From the NCBI RefSeq assembly GCF_016903815.1, contig NZ_CP069973.1: 64,000 nucleotides of DNA, one strand, 5' to 3'. How positions within the stretch are numbered: position 1 is the stretch's first letter; every line of letters begins with the position of its first letter. The notes under the pieces are model-generated. The model saw only the letters and a list, made by a program, of their open reading frames with translations. It searched no databases and was not told the DNA's origin. Both the position numbers and the translations under genes were made by a program. This DNA comes from Escherichia coli. GTDB lineage: Bacteria > Pseudomonadota > Gammaproteobacteria > Enterobacterales > Enterobacteriaceae. Positions 1,860-42,594 of the stretch are shown here, in pieces.

Positions 1860-1933
1860 TGGAGCGGGCGAAGGGAATCGAACCCTCGTATAGAGCTTGG
1901 GAAGCTCTCGTTCTACCATTGAACTACGCCCGC
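1860..1933 (-). tRNA. glyU: tRNA-Gly (anticodon CCC), glyU
   Basis: Reverse complement reads GCGGGCGTAGTTCAATGGTAGAACGAGAGCTTCCCAAGCTCTATACGAGGGTTCGATTCCCTTCGCCCGCTCCA: cloverleaf, CCC anticodon, encoded CCA. Confidence 0.93.
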
Positions 1934-2791: not shown

Positions 2792-2893
2792 GACGCCTTA
2801 TCATAGCAGCCAGCCTCTTGATACCCAATCTCTTGCTTCTGGAAAAACGTGGTAATAGAGAAAGAGGTTAATTTCATTGGTAATGACTCCAAC

Positions 2894-3397
2894 TTATTGA
2901 TAGTGTTTTATGTTCAGATAATGCCCGATGACTTTGTCATGCAGCTCCACCGATTTTGAGAACGACAGCGACTTCCGTCCCAGCCGTGCCAGGTGCTGCC
3001 TCAGATTCAGGTTATGCCGCTCAATTCGCTGCGTATATCGCTTGCTGATTACGTGCAGCTTTCCCTTCAGGCGGGATTCATACAGCGGCCAGCCATCCGT
3101 CATCCATATCACCACGTCAAAGGGTGACAGCAGGCTCATAAGACGCCCCAGCGTCGCCATAGTGCGTTCACCGAATACGTGCGCAACAACCGTCTTCCGG
3201 AGCCTGTCATACGCGTAAAACAGCCAGCGCTGGCGCGATTTAGCCCCGACATAGCCCCACTGTCCGTCCATTTCCGCGCAGACGATGACGTCACTGCCCG
3301 GCTGTATGCGCGAGGTTACCGACTGCGGCCTGAGTTTTTTAAGTGACGTAAAATCGTGTTGAGGCCAACGCCCATAATGCGGGCTGTTGCCCGGCAT
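2894..3397 (-). CDS. insB: IS1 InsB (transposase C-terminal part, expressed as InsAB' by -1 frameshift)
   Basis: 167-aa [29 protein letters not shown]... matching IS1 InsB; A6C slippery motif TTAAAAAACTC on minus strand at 3331-3342. Confidence 0.9.
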
Positions 3398-3591
3398 CCA
3401 ACGCCATTCATGGCCATATCAATGATTTTCTGGTGCGTACCGGGTTGAGAAGCGGTGTAAGTGAACTGCAGTTGCCATGTTTTACGGCAGTGAGAGCAGA
3501 GATAGCGCTGATGTCCGGCGGTGCTTTTGCCGTTACGCACCACCCCGTCAGTAGCTGAACAGGAGGGACAGCTGATAGAAACAGAAGCCAC
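3316..3591 (-). CDS. insA: IS1 InsA (DNA-binding transposition inhibitor / transposase N-terminal part)
   Basis: 91-aa [45 protein letters not shown]... zinc-finger-like CxxC...CxxC, matches IS1 InsA. Confidence 0.9.
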
Positions 3592-3918
3592 TGGAGCACC
3601 TCAAAAACACCATCATACACTAAATCAGTAAGTTGGCAGCATCACCAAGAGCGCTATCCAGATAAAAACGATTAAATGCGAGAGTGCGACATGCCAGAAT
3701 GATTAATGAAATATCAATATGAGAAAATTACAGATAATTTCATTGTCAGGTTCTCTTCTCATTTTCGTGGTTTAACCACGATTATGTGATTGCCTCCGCA
3801 ATTCCTGTCTCTAACTCCCCTTCCTCGCAAAAACTGGCACTCCACGAGCATGTGTTTAGACAGTTTCATTAACGTAAACGGTTGCTTTTTACTCTGGCGG
3901 GCGAAAGGAGAAACACTG

Positions 3919-5616: not shown

Positions 5617-6165
5617 ATGCAAACGGAACACGTCATTTTATTGAATGCACAGGGAGTTCCCACGGGTACGCTGGAAAAGTATGCCGCACACACGGCAGAC
5701 ACCCGCTTACATCTCGCGTTCTCCAGTTGGCTGTTTAATGCCAAAGGACAATTATTAGTTACCCGCCGCGCACTGAGCAAAAAAGCGTGGCCTGGCGTGT
5801 GGACTAACTCGGTTTGTGGGCACCCACAACTGGGAGAAAGCAACGAAGACGCGGTGATCCGCCGTTGCCGTTATGAGCTTGGCGTGGAAATTACGCCTCC
5901 TGAATCTATCTATCCTGACTTTCGCTATCGCGCCACCGATCCGAATGGCATTGTGGAAAATGAAGTGTGTCCGGTATTTGCCGCACGCACCACCAGTGCG
6001 TTACAGATCAACGATGATGAAGTGATGGATTATCAATGGTGTGATTTAGCAGATGTATTACACGGTATTGATGCCACACCGTGGGCGTTCAGTCCGTGGA
6101 TGGTGATGCAGGCAGCCAATAGTGAAGCAAGAAAATTGTTGTCTACTTTCGCGCAGCACAATTAA
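5617..6165 (+). CDS. idi: Isopentenyl-diphosphate delta-isomerase (type 1, Nudix fold)
   Basis: 182-aa [44 protein letters not shown]... matches E. coli Idi. Confidence 0.93.
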
Positions 6166-25948: not shown

Positions 25949-27270
25949 TGCTTTCTCGCAGCAGCCATCAACGCTTCGATTTCTTCCGGCTTTTTCACCA
26001 CGCTGGCGGTGAGGTTTTCGTTACCGGTTTCGGTAATCACAATGTCGTCTTCAATACGAATGCCGATACCGCGATATTGTTCTGGCACATCCGCATCCGG
26101 CGCGATATACAGACCAGGCTCTACGGTCAGTACCATCCCCGGTTCCAGAATGCGCGAGCGATCCTGACCATAAACGCCAACGTCATGGACATCCAGTCCT
26201 AACCAGTGGCTAAGGCCATGCATAAAGAAAGGACGATGGGCGTTCTGAGCGATCAGTTCATCAACATCACCTTTCAGGATGCCGAGTTTTACCAGGCCGC
26301 TAACCATGATGCGCACCACTTCACCAGTGACTTCCAGAATGGAAGTTCCCGGACGATACAGGCGCAGGCTGGTTTCGAGAGACTCCAGCACAATGTCGTA
26401 GATTTCACGCTGGGTCTGGGTGAATTTGCCGTTGACCGGGAAGGTGCGGGTAATATCGCCAGCGTAACCTTTGTATTCGCAACCCGCGTCAATCAACACC
26501 AGGTCGCCGTCGCGCATTTCACACTCGTTTTCGGTGTAGTGCAGAATGCAGCCGTTTTCACCGCTGCCGACAATGGTGTTATAGGACGGATAGCGCGCAC
26601 CGTGGCGGTTAAATTCGTGGTGAATTTCGCCTTCCAGATGGTACTCGAACATTCCCGGACGGCATTTTTCCATCGCCCGGGTATGTGCCATGGCGGTGAT
26701 TTCTCCCGCGCGGCGGAGTACGGCAATCTCTTCTGGCGATTTGAACAGGCGCATTTCATGAACAACAGGACGCCAGTCGATCATCGTTGCCGGTGCGGTG
26801 AGATTTTGCCGCGAACCTTTACGCAGTTTTTCCAGCGCACTGTTCACGATTTCATCAGCATATGCATATTCGCCCTGGGCATGGTAAACCACATCCAGGC
26901 CGTTAAGTAGTTGATAAAGTTGCTGATTGATTTCGCTGAATGCCAGTGCGCGGTCAACGCCCAGTTTCTCTGGCGCGGCATCCTGGCCTAAGCGACGGCC
27001 AAACCAGATCTCCGCCGTCAGGTCGCGAACGCGGTTAAACAGAACGCTGTGGTTATGAGTGTCATCGCTTTTAATCAGCACCAGCACCGCTTCCGGTTCG
27101 TTAAAGCCGGTGAAGTACCAGAAGTCACTGTTCTGACGATAGGGGTATTCGCTGTCGGCGCTACGTGTTACTTCTGGTGCAGCAAAAATCAGCGCGGCGC
27201 TGCCGGGTTGCATTTGCTCCACCAGGGCCTGACGGCGACGCTGAAACTCTTGCCGGGATATCTCACTCAT
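25945..27270 (-). CDS. pepP: Xaa-Pro aminopeptidase (aminopeptidase P II); start at MSEISRQEF
   Basis: 441-aa M24B metallopeptidase with conserved metal ligands (HGLSHWLGLDVHD, EPG). Confidence 0.93.
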   Translation of the reverse strand: MSEISRQEFQRRRQALVEQMQPGSAALIFAAPEVTRSADSEYPYRQNSDFWYFTGFNEPEAVLVLIKSDDTHNHSVLFNRVRDLTAEIWFGRRLGQDAAPEKLGVDRALAFSEINQQLYQLLNGLDVVYHAQGEYAYADEIVNSALEKLRKGSRQNLTAPATMIDWRPVVHEMRLFKSPEEIAVLRRAGEITAMAHTRAMEKCRPGMFEYHLEGEIHHEFNRHGARYPSYNTIVGSGENGCILHYTENECEMRDGDLVLIDAGCEYKGYAGDITRTFPVNGKFTQTQREIYDIVLESLETSLRLYRPGTSILEVTGEVVRIMVSGLVKLGILKGDVDELIAQNAHRPFFMHGLSHWLGLDVHDVGVYGQDRSRILEPGMVLTVEPGLYIAPDADVPEQYRGIGIRIEDDIVITETGNENLTASVVKKPEEIEALMAAARKQ

Positions 27271-27295
27271 AACACTCTCCTTACGTTTTTTGTTT

Positions 27296-27874
27296 TTAGT
27301 GTAGAGTCGGTTTTTGTACTTCTGGCGCGGTCGGTTGCGGATGAGTAAAGGTGTCGTGGCATAACAGCGCGGCAACACGAACGTATTCGATGATCTCTTC
27401 AAGCGACATTTCAAGCTCTTCCTGATCTTCGTCTTCGTCGTAACCCAGTTGCGCAATGTTACGCAGATCGTCGATAGCTTCACCGGTTTCGCCGGTCACT
27501 TTATCCAGCTTCGGTTGCGTAACGCCAAGACCAAGCAGGAAGTGATTGACCCAACCTGCCAATGCATCAGCCCGATCGAAAACGCTGACATCATCGCCAT
27601 CAGGCAGATAAAGCTGAAAAAGGAAGCCGTCATCCTGCAGGGCATCGCTGGTGGCAGAGTGCATTTTACGCAGTGCCTGTGCCAGCTCATGACCGAAAGC
27701 CATGCCTTCGTTCGTCAGGTCGTGAAGTAGCGGTAGCCATGAGCTGTCATCGTTACCGCCACATATCATCCCGCTGATTAAACCATGCATCTCAGCTGGG
27801 GTCAGACCCGTCCCTTGTTGGTTCAGATACTGGTTCATTTCGTTGTAACCAGGCATTTCGTTCTGTATAGACAT
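27296..27874 (-). CDS. ygfB: UPF0149-family protein YgfB
   Basis: 192-aa acidic protein [21 protein letters not shown]...; first gene of ygfB-pepP-ubiH-ubiI cluster. Confidence 0.88.
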
Positions 27875-27975
27875 AAGCATTCGTCGTCAAAGGGAGGAAT
27901 ATTCATGATATGCTACCACTTTGGGCCCTGGTGGACCAGAAAAGGGCTTGTCTCTTCTCATCAGGGTAGCTATAG

Positions 27976-28371
<396 letters not shown>

Positions 28372-28412
28372 CACTTTTCGGTTTACTGTGGTAGAGTAAC
28401 CGTGAAGACAAA

Positions 28413-28596
28413 ATTTCTCTGAGATGTTCGCAAGCGGGCCAGTCCCCTGAGCCGATATTTCATACCACAAGAATGTGGCGCTCCGCGGTTGGTGAGCATG
28501 CTCGGTCCGTCCGAGAAGCCTTAAAACTGCGACGACACATTCACCTTGAACCAAGGGTTCAAGGGTTACAGCCTGCGGCGGCATCTCGGAGATTCC
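28413..28596 (+). ncRNA. ssrS: 6S RNA (SsrS), RNA polymerase sigma70 holoenzyme regulator
   Basis: ATTTCTCTGAGATGTTCGCAAGCGGGCCAGTCCCCTGAGCCGATATTTCATACC...GGCATCTCGGAGATTCCC matches recalled 6S RNA; 3' end +/- 3 nt. Confidence 0.88.
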
Positions 28597-28670
28597 CTTC
28601 TTATCTGGCACCAGCCATGACGCAACTACCAGAACTCCCACTGATATTATCCCGACAAGAAATCCGCAAA

Positions 28671-29219
28671 ATGATTCGGCAACGTCGTCGTGCGTTAACG
28701 CCGGAACAACAGCAGGAAATGGGTCAACAAGCCGCTACCCGGATGATGACTTATCCCCCGGTGGTGATGGCACATACGGTCGCTGTATTCCTCTCTTTTG
28801 ATGGCGAACTCGACACCCAGCCACTCATAGAACAACTCTGGCGCGCCGGTAAGCGCGTATATCTTCCAGTTTTGCATCCCTTTAGTGCCGGTAATTTGCT
28901 GTTCCTGAATTACCATCCGCAAAGCGAACTGGTGATGAACAGGTTGAAGATCCATGAGCCAAAATTGGATGTGCGTGACGTGCTCCCCCTTTCCCGATTA
29001 GACGTCCTGATCACCCCCCTGGTCGCCTTTGATGAGTACGGTCAGCGCCTGGGAATGGGCGGAGGTTTTTATGATCGGACCTTACAAAACTGGCAGCACT
29101 ATAAAATGCAACCGGTGGGTTATGCGCATGATTGTCAGTTGGTGGAAAAACTCCCCGTTGAAGAGTGGGATATCCCACTGCCTGCGGTGGTTACACCGTC
29201 GAAAGTCTGGGAGTGGTAA
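28671..29219 (+). CDS. ygfA: 5-formyltetrahydrofolate cyclo-ligase (YgfA/Fau); start at MIRQRRRALTP, co-transcribed downstream of ssrS
   Basis: 182-aa protein with conserved GMGGGFYDR motif; the 248-aa ORF extension overlaps the 6S RNA gene. Confidence 0.88.
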   Translation: MIRQRRRALTPEQQQEMGQQAATRMMTYPPVVMAHTVAVFLSFDGELDTQPLIEQLWRAGKRVYLPVLHPFSAGNLLFLNYHPQSELVMNRLKIHEPKLDVRDVLPLSRLDVLITPLVAFDEYGQRLGMGGGFYDRTLQNWQHYKMQPVGYAHDCQLVEKLPVEEWDIPLPAVVTPSKVWEW

Positions 29220-29277
29220 GGGCGACACACCTGCATCGCCCTGATTGACATCGTTGATTCTTTGACCTAATTTAGTG

Positions 29278-29418
29278 AGTAAGGGTAAGGGAGGATTGCT
29301 CCTCCCCTGAGACTGACTGTTAATAAGCGCTGAAACTTATGAGTAACAGTACAATCAGTATGATGACAAGTCGCATCATAACCCTTCTCCTTCAAGCCCT
29401 CGCTTCGGTGAGGGCTTT
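29278..29418 (+). ncRNA. sibC: SibC antisense sRNA (type I antitoxin RNA), approximate ends
   Basis: Fully antisense to ibsC; ends in hairpin GCCCTCGCTTCGGTGAGGGC; 5' end estimated from recalled ~140-nt length. Confidence 0.6.
29320..29379 (-). CDS. ibsC: Type I toxin IbsC, 19-aa hydrophobic membrane peptide MMRLVIILIVLLLISFSAY
   Basis: Minus-strand ATGATGCGACTTGTCATCATACTGATTGTACTGTTACTCATAAGTTTCAGCGCTTATTAA; AAGGAG 9 nt upstream; in ygfA-serA spacer. Confidence 0.8.
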   Translation of the reverse strand: MMRLVIILIVLLLISFSAY

Positions 29419-29607
29419 ACCGTTACAGCCCCATGCTGCCCTGCCATCGTAAATCCCCATTAAATAAACACAACGCATTGATCTGACTTTGATTTATTTT
29501 CTGGAGCAGACTCGCAAAGTAGAATGCGCAACGCGGCAACGGTGTGGAGAAGGGATAAAAAAACGGGCAAGTCAGTGACCTGCCCGTTGATTTTCAGAGA
29601 AGGGGAA

Positions 29608-30840
29608 TTAGTACAGCAGACGGGCGCGAATGGTACCCGGAATAGCTTTCATTGCCTGCAGCGCTTTTTCGGCAACGTCTTCGTCGGCTTCAATATCAAT
29701 AACTACATAACCCATCTGGGCGGAAGTTTGCAGATATTGCGCGGCGATGTTGACGCCCTGCTCGGCAAAAATTTTGTTGAGCGCAGTTAGCACGCCCGGA
29801 CGGTTTTCGTGGATGTGCATCAGACGACGCCCACCGTGCAGTGGCAGCGAGACTTCCGGGAAGTTCACCGCAGAGAGCGTTGAGCCATTGTCAGAATACT
29901 TGATCAATTTACCCGCAACTTCCAGGCCGATATTCTCCTGCGCTTCCTGAGTCGAACCGCCAATGTGTGGCGTCAGAAGGACGTTGTCGAATTCACACAG
30001 CGGAGAGGTAAATGGATCGCTATTGGTCGCCGGTTCCGTCGGGAATACGTCGATTGCCGCCCCCGCCAGATGTTTGCTCGCCAGCGCATCACACAGCGCC
30101 GGAATATCCACCACAGTACCGCGCGAAGCATTAATCAGCAGCGAGCCGGGCTTCATTAGTGAAATTTCTTTCGCGCCCATCATATTTTTGGTGGACGGAT
30201 TCTCTGGTACATGCAGACTCACCACATCGCTCATATTCAGCAGGTCAGAAAGATGCTGTACCTGAGTGGCGTTGCCCAGCGGCAGTTTATTTTCAATATC
30301 ATAAAAGTAAACATACATTCCCAGCGATTCAGCCAGAATGCCCAATTGCGTACCAATATGACCGTAGCCGATGATACCCAGCTTTTTGCCGCGCGCTTCA
30401 AAAGAACCCGCCGCCAGTTTGTTCCACACGCCACGGTGCGCTTTAGCATTGGCTTCCGGCACGCCGCGCAATAGCAGCAGCAGTTCGCCAATCACCAGCT
30501 CCGCAACAGAGCGCGTATTTGAGAACGGTGCGTTAAATACCGGGATCCCGCGCTTTGCCGCCGCATCCAGATCAACCTGGTTTGTTCCGATACAGAAACA
30601 GCCAATAGCGACCAGTTTTTCTGCGGCGTTGATCACGTCTTCAGTCAGATGGGTACGGGATCGCAGGCCGATGAAGTGGGCATCGCGGATGGATTCTTTT
30701 AATTGTTCATCATCCAGCGCGCCTTTGTGAAATTCGATGTTGGTGTAACCAGCTGCACGAAGGCTTTCCAGCGCCTTTTGGTGCACGCCTTCTACCAGCA
30801 GAAACTTAATCTTGTCTTTCTCCAGCGATACCTTTGCCAT
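29608..30840 (-). CDS. serA: D-3-phosphoglycerate dehydrogenase
   Basis: 410-aa ORF MAKVSLEKDKIKFLLVEGVHQKALESLRAAGYTNIEFHKGALDDEQL...; NAD Rossmann GYGHIG, C-terminal ACT domain. Confidence 0.96.
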   Translation of the reverse strand: MAKVSLEKDKIKFLLVEGVHQKALESLRAAGYTNIEFHKGALDDEQLKESIRDAHFIGLRSRTHLTEDVINAAEKLVAIGCFCIGTNQVDLDAAAKRGIPVFNAPFSNTRSVAELVIGELLLLLRGVPEANAKAHRGVWNKLAAGSFEARGKKLGIIGYGHIGTQLGILAESLGMYVYFYDIENKLPLGNATQVQHLSDLLNMSDVVSLHVPENPSTKNMMGAKEISLMKPGSLLINASRGTVVDIPALCDALASKHLAGAAIDVFPTEPATNSDPFTSPLCEFDNVLLTPHIGGSTQEAQENIGLEVAGKLIKYSDNGSTLSAVNFPEVSLPLHGGRRLMHIHENRPGVLTALNKIFAEQGVNIAAQYLQTSAQMGYVVIDIEADEDVAEKALQAMKAIPGTIRARLLY

Positions 30841-31095
30841 TTACCCAATCCTGTCTTTTGAAATGTTGTGTGCGGATTTGCGTCCGCCTTTCAACATATC
30901 AAAAAATAATATTGCGGCAATATGAACGTTTGCGTCGCGATGTTGAGGAAATATCACGCAAAGGTAATTCTTGGATGAATATGCTGGTTTAGAAGATTTA
31001 TTTAGAGCAATCGACAATAGCCAGGTAAAAACGTGACACATGTCACCAAATTTAATGAAGAGAATTTTTTTAACGGGGGAGGTTCCCCCGTCAGA

Positions 31096-42237: not shown

Positions 42238-42431
42238 TCAATATTCCTTTTCAACTGACTCAAAATGGAGAAATACACTCCGCCGCCTTATGACGGGCAG
42301 TCTGACAAGGGTAAACAATAAAGCATAATTTTGCCAAATAGATCACAGATTTCTCATCTGAATCACCTTGCTTTTGGCGAAAAAATCCCCGCAGAGCGGG
42401 GCTCAGACAGATATCAATGTGCGCTTTGTCA

Positions 42432-42529
42432 TGCCGGATGCGGCGTGAACGCCTTATCCGGCCTACAAAAACCTGCAAATTCAATATATTGCAGGATACG
42501 TGTAGGCCTGATAAGCGTAGCGCATCAGG
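42432..42529. repeat. BIME: two inverted REP units with central spacer, mscS-fbaA intergenic
   Basis: GCCGGATGCGGCGTGAACGCCTTATCCGGCCTAC ... GTAGGCCTGATAAGCGTAGCGCATCAGGC. Confidence 0.8.
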
Positions 42530-42594
42530 CAATTTTGCTTTTGGCGAAAAAAAGACCCGCAGAGCGGGCCTTGAGATAAGCAGAAAGGAATATC

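Follow-up and report, generated by a model that had tools for sequence, protein, structure and literature searches.

A K-12-identical ibsC/sibC locus in the fau–serA spacer of a 64-kb Escherichia coli sequence

The spacer between fau (ygfA) and serA in the 64,000-nucleotide stretch of Escherichia coli DNA analysed here, referred to below as the window, almost certainly carries the chromosomal type I toxin-antitoxin module ibsC/sibC of this species. A reading made from the sequence alone had placed this module in the spacer, and the assignment holds: the DNA matches K-12 genes b4446 and b4665 exactly, belongs to the Rfam family SIB_RNA, and is annotated with IbsC in RefSeq. The pair is already known and is represented in both of these resources. 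It was described in 2008 (Fozo et al. 2008, as cited in PMC2943612 and PMC8309996), and the mechanism of SibC was dissected in 2010 (Han et al. 2010, PMC2943612). The present case has no discovery value and serves as a positive control, in which a 19-codon gene and its antisense RNA were recovered from raw sequence (Table 1).

Table 1. Features of the ibsC/sibC locus, in window coordinates
Feature	Position	Strand	Basis
SibC antitoxin small RNA, 141 nt	29281..29421	+	100% identity to K-12 sibC b4446; Rfam RF00113
sibC promoter, putative -35 hexamer TTGACA	29245..29250	+	Inferred from 17-nt spacing to the -10 hexamer; within the Rfam match
sibC promoter, putative -10 hexamer TAATTT, 7 nt before the SibC 5' end	29268..29273	+	Distance to the annotated 5' end
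SibC 3' stem-loop P7, terminator hairpin, 10 bp, UUCG loop, then UUUACC	29394..29417	+	Fold; covariation
SibC TRD1, +46 to +68, P5 loop, pairing within the ibsC ORF	29326..29348	+	Numbering of Han et al. 2010, mapped
SibC TRD2, +99 to +115	29379..29395	+	Numbering of Han et al. 2010, mapped
ibsC CDS, 60 nt, 19 aa + TAA	29320..29379	-	Translation; 100% identity to K-12 b4665
ibsC Shine-Dalgarno AAGGAG	29387..29392	-	Sequence reading
ibsC mRNA, ~159 nt	29281..29439	-	5' end from the literature (Han et al. 2010); 3' end approximate
ibsC promoter, putative: -35 TTGTGT 29473-29468, 16-nt spacer, -10 TACGAT 29451-29446	29446..29473	-	Inferred from sequence

The gene order in K-12 MG1655 is zapA, ssrS, fau, sibC (b4446, 141 nt, plus strand), ibsC (b4665, 60 nt, minus strand), serA and rpiA, and the window carries sibC and ibsC in the fau–serA spacer at the same location. 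SibC, the ibsC coding sequence, the promoter and hairpin sequences and the residue numbering are all identical to those of K-12, and the differences are confined to the flanks. The surrounding 4.5 kb contains 27 SNPs relative to K-12, none of them inside the module; the nearest, at 29226 and 29232, lie downstream of the fau stop codon and ahead of the sibC -35 hexamer. An exact module amid 27 flanking differences identifies the window as DNA of a non-K-12 E. coli with the K-12 module allele. The span first proposed for the locus, 29278–29418, found the right element but sat 3 nt too far to the left of the sequence corresponding to K-12 sibC (29281–29421). By megablast, the region 29150–29650 was found in 5,425 of 5,426 complete E. 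coli genomes, in many of them at 100% identity. PGAP/RefSeq annotates the matching DNA with fau, serA and, between them, ibsC ('type I toxin-antitoxin system toxin IbsC'), and the RefSeq protein WP_010723220.1, 'toxin IbsC', is placed on DNA identical to the ibsC of the window. The sibC ncRNA is annotated in the K-12 record and absent from the PGAP record examined.

A covariance-model search for Sib RNAs, which had been proposed as a check on the locus, gave a clear result. When positions 27000–31000 were compared with all Rfam families, SIB_RNA (RF00113) matched 29245–29395 on the plus strand over the full model (1–147), with 133.8 bits against a gathering score of 56 and an E-value of 1.5e-28. 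This match was the sole one to RF00113, and no second Sib copy was found by the Rfam search in the 64-kb window. The -35 hexamer of the sibC promoter is near-consensus, and its TTGAC is invariant among all five K-12 sib copies and the window; the -10 hexamer agrees with TATAAT at three of six positions (T1, A2 and T6 are kept). A consensus scan for promoters and terminators in 29150–29650 left the sibC promoter, the ibsC promoter and the SibC terminator uncalled, its sole call being the serA terminator at 29588–29562 on the minus strand. The sibC promoter escaped the scan because of its three-position -10 match, and the SibC terminator because of its short T-run, so that these gaps reflect strict scan rules, not absent elements.

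SibC is predicted to fold with a minimum free energy of -55.3 kcal/mol, compared with -33.8 ± 3.9 kcal/mol for dinucleotide shuffles (z = -5.54), and none of the 200 shuffles equalled it. The fold has a closing stem P1 (residues 1–6 paired with 101–106), hairpins at 9–26, 36–70 and 79–100, and a terminal hairpin at 114–137, and it leaves CUCCUUC (107–113) unpaired. It contains P1, P2, P5, P6 and P7 and agrees with the P1, P2, P5, P6, J1/7 and P7 elements of Han et al. 2010. The GC hairpin that had been seen at the end of the plus strand is P7, with GC-rich arms (AAGCCCUCGC-UUCG-GUGAGGGCUU), which is the transcription terminator stem of SibC (Han et al. 2010, PMC2943612). The ends of the Sib RNA are well defined for the K-12 sequence (Han et al. 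2010, PMC2943612), and the published residue numbers for TRD1, TRD2 and the ibsC 5' end fit the window exactly. Thus, G49-C-U51 of TRD1 falls on 29329–29331, which reads GCT as published, and C107UCCUUC113 corresponds to CTCCTTC at 29387–29393, the single-stranded J1/7 segment that is complementary to the ibsC Shine-Dalgarno sequence.

On the minus strand, the ibsC frame (ATG ATG CGA CTT GTC ATC ATA CTG ATT GTA CTG TTA CTC ATA AGT TTC AGC GCT TAT TAA) reads directly as the hydrophobic 19-aa peptide MMRLVIILIVLLLISFSAY* that had been reported from the sequence, TAA included. The start codon occupies 29379–29377. Both this ATG and the upstream AAGGAG had been correctly recognized; the 9 nt given for the distance between them should be 7 nt (AAGGGTT, 29386–29380), which is a good Shine-Dalgarno distance. 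A purine-rich AAGGA/AGGAG block stands upstream of every ibs copy aligned. In its length (18–19 aa in the family), its high hydrophobicity, its MM..VIIL...S..AY motif and its upstream Shine-Dalgarno sequence, the product conforms to the Ibs toxin family. The frame is missing from the six-frame ORF list of the window, since its 19 aa fall below the list floor of 20 aa. Length-thresholded ORF lists miss genes of this class, and the earlier remark that ibsC is easily missed is true of such lists; it is not true of NCBI annotation, in which ibsC was called in every record listed.

The ibsC RNA used by Han et al. 2010 (PMC2943612) was 159 nt long with an 18-nt 5' overhang beyond SibC, and the sole position of its 5' end that fits the numbering of these authors is 29439, 18 nt past 29421. 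Residues G50, G51 and G53 of ibsC pair with C110, C109 and C107 of SibC and are protected by it (Han et al. 2010, PMC2943612); they map to 29390, 29389 and 29387, within AAGGAG. The 3' end was deduced by Han et al. 2010 (PMC2943612) from a transcript of ~160 nt on Northern blots. The putative ibsC promoter has a -10 column (nAnnAT) that aligns across all ibs copies, and conserved promoter elements upstream of the mapped ibsC start are stated by Han et al. 2010 (PMC2943612).

The SibC gene contains the whole ibsC coding sequence and its Shine-Dalgarno sequence on the opposite strand; complementarity of SibC to the ibsC mRNA is an automatic consequence of this cis-antisense arrangement. Sib RNAs of ~140 nt are constitutive repressors of their cognate ibs mRNAs, and Ibs peptides, with 18–19 hydrophobic residues, harm the cell envelope and kill the cell when produced in excess (PMC2943612). 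Overexpression of IbsC depolarised ~50% of cells within minutes, lowered viability and induced pspABCDE; the peptide is alpha-helical, and its toxicity requires residues 6–19 (PMC8309996, a 2021 review). These reports concern an identical sequence and bear out what had been said of membrane depolarisation by Ibs and antisense repression by Sib. Toxicity of chromosomal Ibs/Sib is shown on overexpression only.

By analogy with K-12, both RNAs are probably expressed in the strain of the window. The minus strand would give a weakly transcribed mRNA of ~160 nt, whose Shine-Dalgarno sequence and 19-codon ORF would direct synthesis of IbsC, a single-helix hydrophobic peptide; in excess, IbsC would insert into the inner membrane, depolarise it and stop growth. 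From the plus strand, sibC would give rise to abundant SibC, a structured RNA of 141 nt whose sequence is the complement of the whole ibsC ORF and its ribosome-binding site. First contact would be made by two exposed SibC segments, TRD1 in the P5 loop with the inside of the ORF, and the CUCCUUC of TRD2, between P1 and the terminator stem, with the Shine-Dalgarno sequence. TRD1 and TRD2 act independently as initial contact sites in K-12, after which a partial duplex forms and the ibsC mRNA is degraded (PMC2943612). Pairing would then spread, translation initiation would be blocked and the mRNA degraded, and no toxin would be made.

With a 205-nt query, the sibC locus was found in 5424 of 5426 complete E. 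coli genomes, two genomes being without a match. The query matched 7295 places, never more than two per genome, and one of these was on a record labelled as a plasmid. The ~1870 extra places suggest that roughly a third of E. coli strains have a two-copy fau–serA spacer. In E. coli O157:H7 strain 8368 (L035), two tandem Ibs CDSs lie in this spacer, at 1280–1339 and 1673–1732. Each copy of such a tandem spacer is ~96% identical to the module of the window, which is single-copy like that of K-12, unlike the O157:H7 arrangement with its two Ibs CDSs between fau and serA.

It is very unlikely that the module, intact in sequence, is a silent or decaying relic in the strain of the window. In favour of such a reading, two of the 35 family copies, both in other Enterobacteriaceae, have a broken ibs frame with the Sib side otherwise kept: in L019 (UBA3516; ~435–462) the stop codon is lost through a change of TAA to GAA, and in L026 (Citrobacter sp. 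MGH106; ~6017–6043) there is a 2-nt deletion. Moreover, sibA-deficient cells are viable though they express ibsA (Han et al. 2010, PMC2943612). The copy in the window is nevertheless identical to the ibsC/sibC of K-12, for which expression, toxicity and repression have been demonstrated experimentally, and retention of the locus in all but two of the E. coli genomes also speaks against a relic.

The two strands were also compared across Enterobacteriaceae. An exact-pattern scan of a 100,044-species genome collection with ATGATGANNNGNNNCATCATRACCCTT, a pattern that spans P6 and the start codons, gave 32 matches in 30 loci, distributed among Escherichia, Citrobacter, Salmonella, Pseudocitrobacter, Kluyvera, Phytobacter, a Raoultella MAG and further Enterobacteriaceae. 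Because the pattern itself fixes the P6 and start-codon columns, these say nothing about conservation. An opposite-strand frame of 18–19 codons ending in (A/T)Y-stop is intact in 30 of the 32 matches and in 33 of the 35 family copies, and all intact copies keep MM...(V/I/L)IIL...S..(A/T)Y. Among 29 distinct family peptides, L8, L12, S15 and Y19 are invariant; M1, M2, I6 and I7 are invariant as well, which is not informative, as they were set by the search pattern. Over 30 distinct 60-nt ORFs, including those of the window and K-12, mean column entropy is 0.40, 0.27 and 0.72 for codon positions 1, 2 and 3, the third being the highest. On the RNA side, RNAalifold applied to 32 sequences recovered P1, P6 and P7 together with parts of P2 and of the P4/P5 stem, and compensatory double changes were present in 8 of 29 consensus pairs in these 32 copies. 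They include GC/CG at 16:16 (P4/P5 stem) and AU/GC at 16:13 (P2), as well as CG/UA, UA/CG and CG/GC within P7. Codon-position variation and covariation therefore give each strand its own signature of selection, for coding on the minus strand and for RNA structure on the plus strand.

These data weigh heavily against the proposal that SibC is solely a non-coding small RNA or intergenic 'QUAD' repeat and that the opposite 19-codon ORF is a chance frame that is never translated. Short ORFs are abundant here (71 with 20 aa or more overlap the 4 kb surrounding ibsC), so an ORF of 19 codons could by itself arise by chance, and constraint on RNA structure could by itself conserve the sequence. Yet the frame, the double ATG, the Shine-Dalgarno sequence and the C-terminal (A/T)Y-stop are kept in those 33 copies from several genera, RNA structure alone does not predict that variation should be highest at third codon positions, and toxicity of the peptide depended on its sequence in mutagenesis and overexpression studies (PMC8309996, PMC2943612). 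We consider this proposal scarcely credible. The significance of the ibsC ORF comes from the Rfam match, the exact identity to K-12 sibC and ibsC, and the family-wide conservation. Two other frames overlapping SibC were rejected as genes. The 37-aa ORF at 29339–29452 (plus strand), inside SibC, has ATC in place of its ATG in most family copies and contains indels that are not multiples of three; the 42-aa TTG ORF at 29267–29395 (minus strand) reads the same stretch in another frame and lacks conservation support.

The chance that the hairpins of the spacer are simply terminators of the convergent fau and serA genes, the remainder being neutral spacer, is close to nil. On the plus strand, the scan called nothing terminator-like from the fau stop codon (29219) up to the SibC hairpin, so that P7 could also stop read-through from fau, but transcription of serA meets a separate, strong terminator, the element carries a TTGACA promoter of its own and matches a curated RNA family, and it recurs at unrelated loci, namely yegL–mdtA and yqiK–hldE in K-12 and non-serA contexts in 30 of the 32 copies from other genomes.

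The ibsC/sibC reading is thus retained, and the module can be set beside its relatives. The K-12 paralogues ibsA/sibA, ibsB/sibB, ibsD/sibD and ibsE/sibE have the same architecture at ~80% mean column identity and share with the module of the window the TTGAC -35 element, the P1, P6 and terminator stems, and the MM...IIL...AY peptide. They differ in being at other loci, as tandem pairs, in a 3-nt indel in the Shine-Dalgarno region relative to ibsC, and in TRD1 and TRD2, the segments responsible for cognate specificity. The E. coli type I systems hok/sok, ldr/rdl, tisB/istR-1 and shoB/ohsC likewise combine a small hydrophobic membrane toxin with a repressing antisense RNA; in contrast to these, the Sib antisense RNA covers the entire functional mRNA, ribosome-binding site and ORF included. 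In the exact-pattern search, only the Escherichia copies L014 and L023 have serA or fau as a neighbour and the other 30 matches sit elsewhere, so the fau–serA position is not shown to be conserved outside Escherichia.

Several other features of the window were recorded. Upstream of the locus, the 6S RNA gene ssrS was matched by Rfam at 28413–28596 on the plus strand with 139.8 bits. A mechanical ORF of 248 aa (28473–29219, plus strand) crosses ssrS, and the real fau CDS starts later; PGAP records give this CDS a length of 603 nt, and the K-12 record one of 549 nt. A match to the snoRNA sR32 at 28715–28769 (20.5 bits against a gathering score of 40) was discarded as a chance match inside fau. 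Further away, a tRNA-Gly(CCC) gene at 1860–1933 (minus strand) is the counterpart of K-12 glyU. Approximately 31 kb of K-12 sequence (3,000,002–3,031,095) is absent from the window, which has ~770 bp instead at 2878–3647; the missing stretch runs from xdhA to ygfT, a putative purine/xanthine catabolism cluster, and the gap lies between actS/glyU and uacT. Rfam also matched the ES036 (CssrF) sRNA at 42467–42509 on the plus strand (47.3 bits against a gathering score of 37.6). The ~125 nt at 42419–42543 share 87% identity with K-12 DNA lying between yqeA and yqeB, which makes this site look like a dispersed repeat.

The surroundings of sibC may bear on how the module is supplied with antitoxin. 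On the plus strand, the consensus scan called no terminator-like site between the fau stop codon at 29219 and the sibC -35 hexamer at 29245, so transcription from ssrS (6S RNA) and fau could read through sibC as far as P7. A weak GGGCGA...TCGCCC hairpin without a T-run is found in this interval (29219–29245, plus strand), and it carries both of the SNPs at 29226 and 29232. The dose of plus-strand antisense RNA over ibsC may therefore come not solely from the sibC promoter, and the polymorphism between one-copy and two-copy spacers may reflect selection on a physiological role of Ibs/Sib. These two readings, of ssrS–fau read-through supplying antisense over ibsC and of the copy-number polymorphism arising from such selection, are in our judgement unlikely. 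If the read-through is real, the supply of antitoxin would be coupled to the growth-phase control of the 6S/fau operon.
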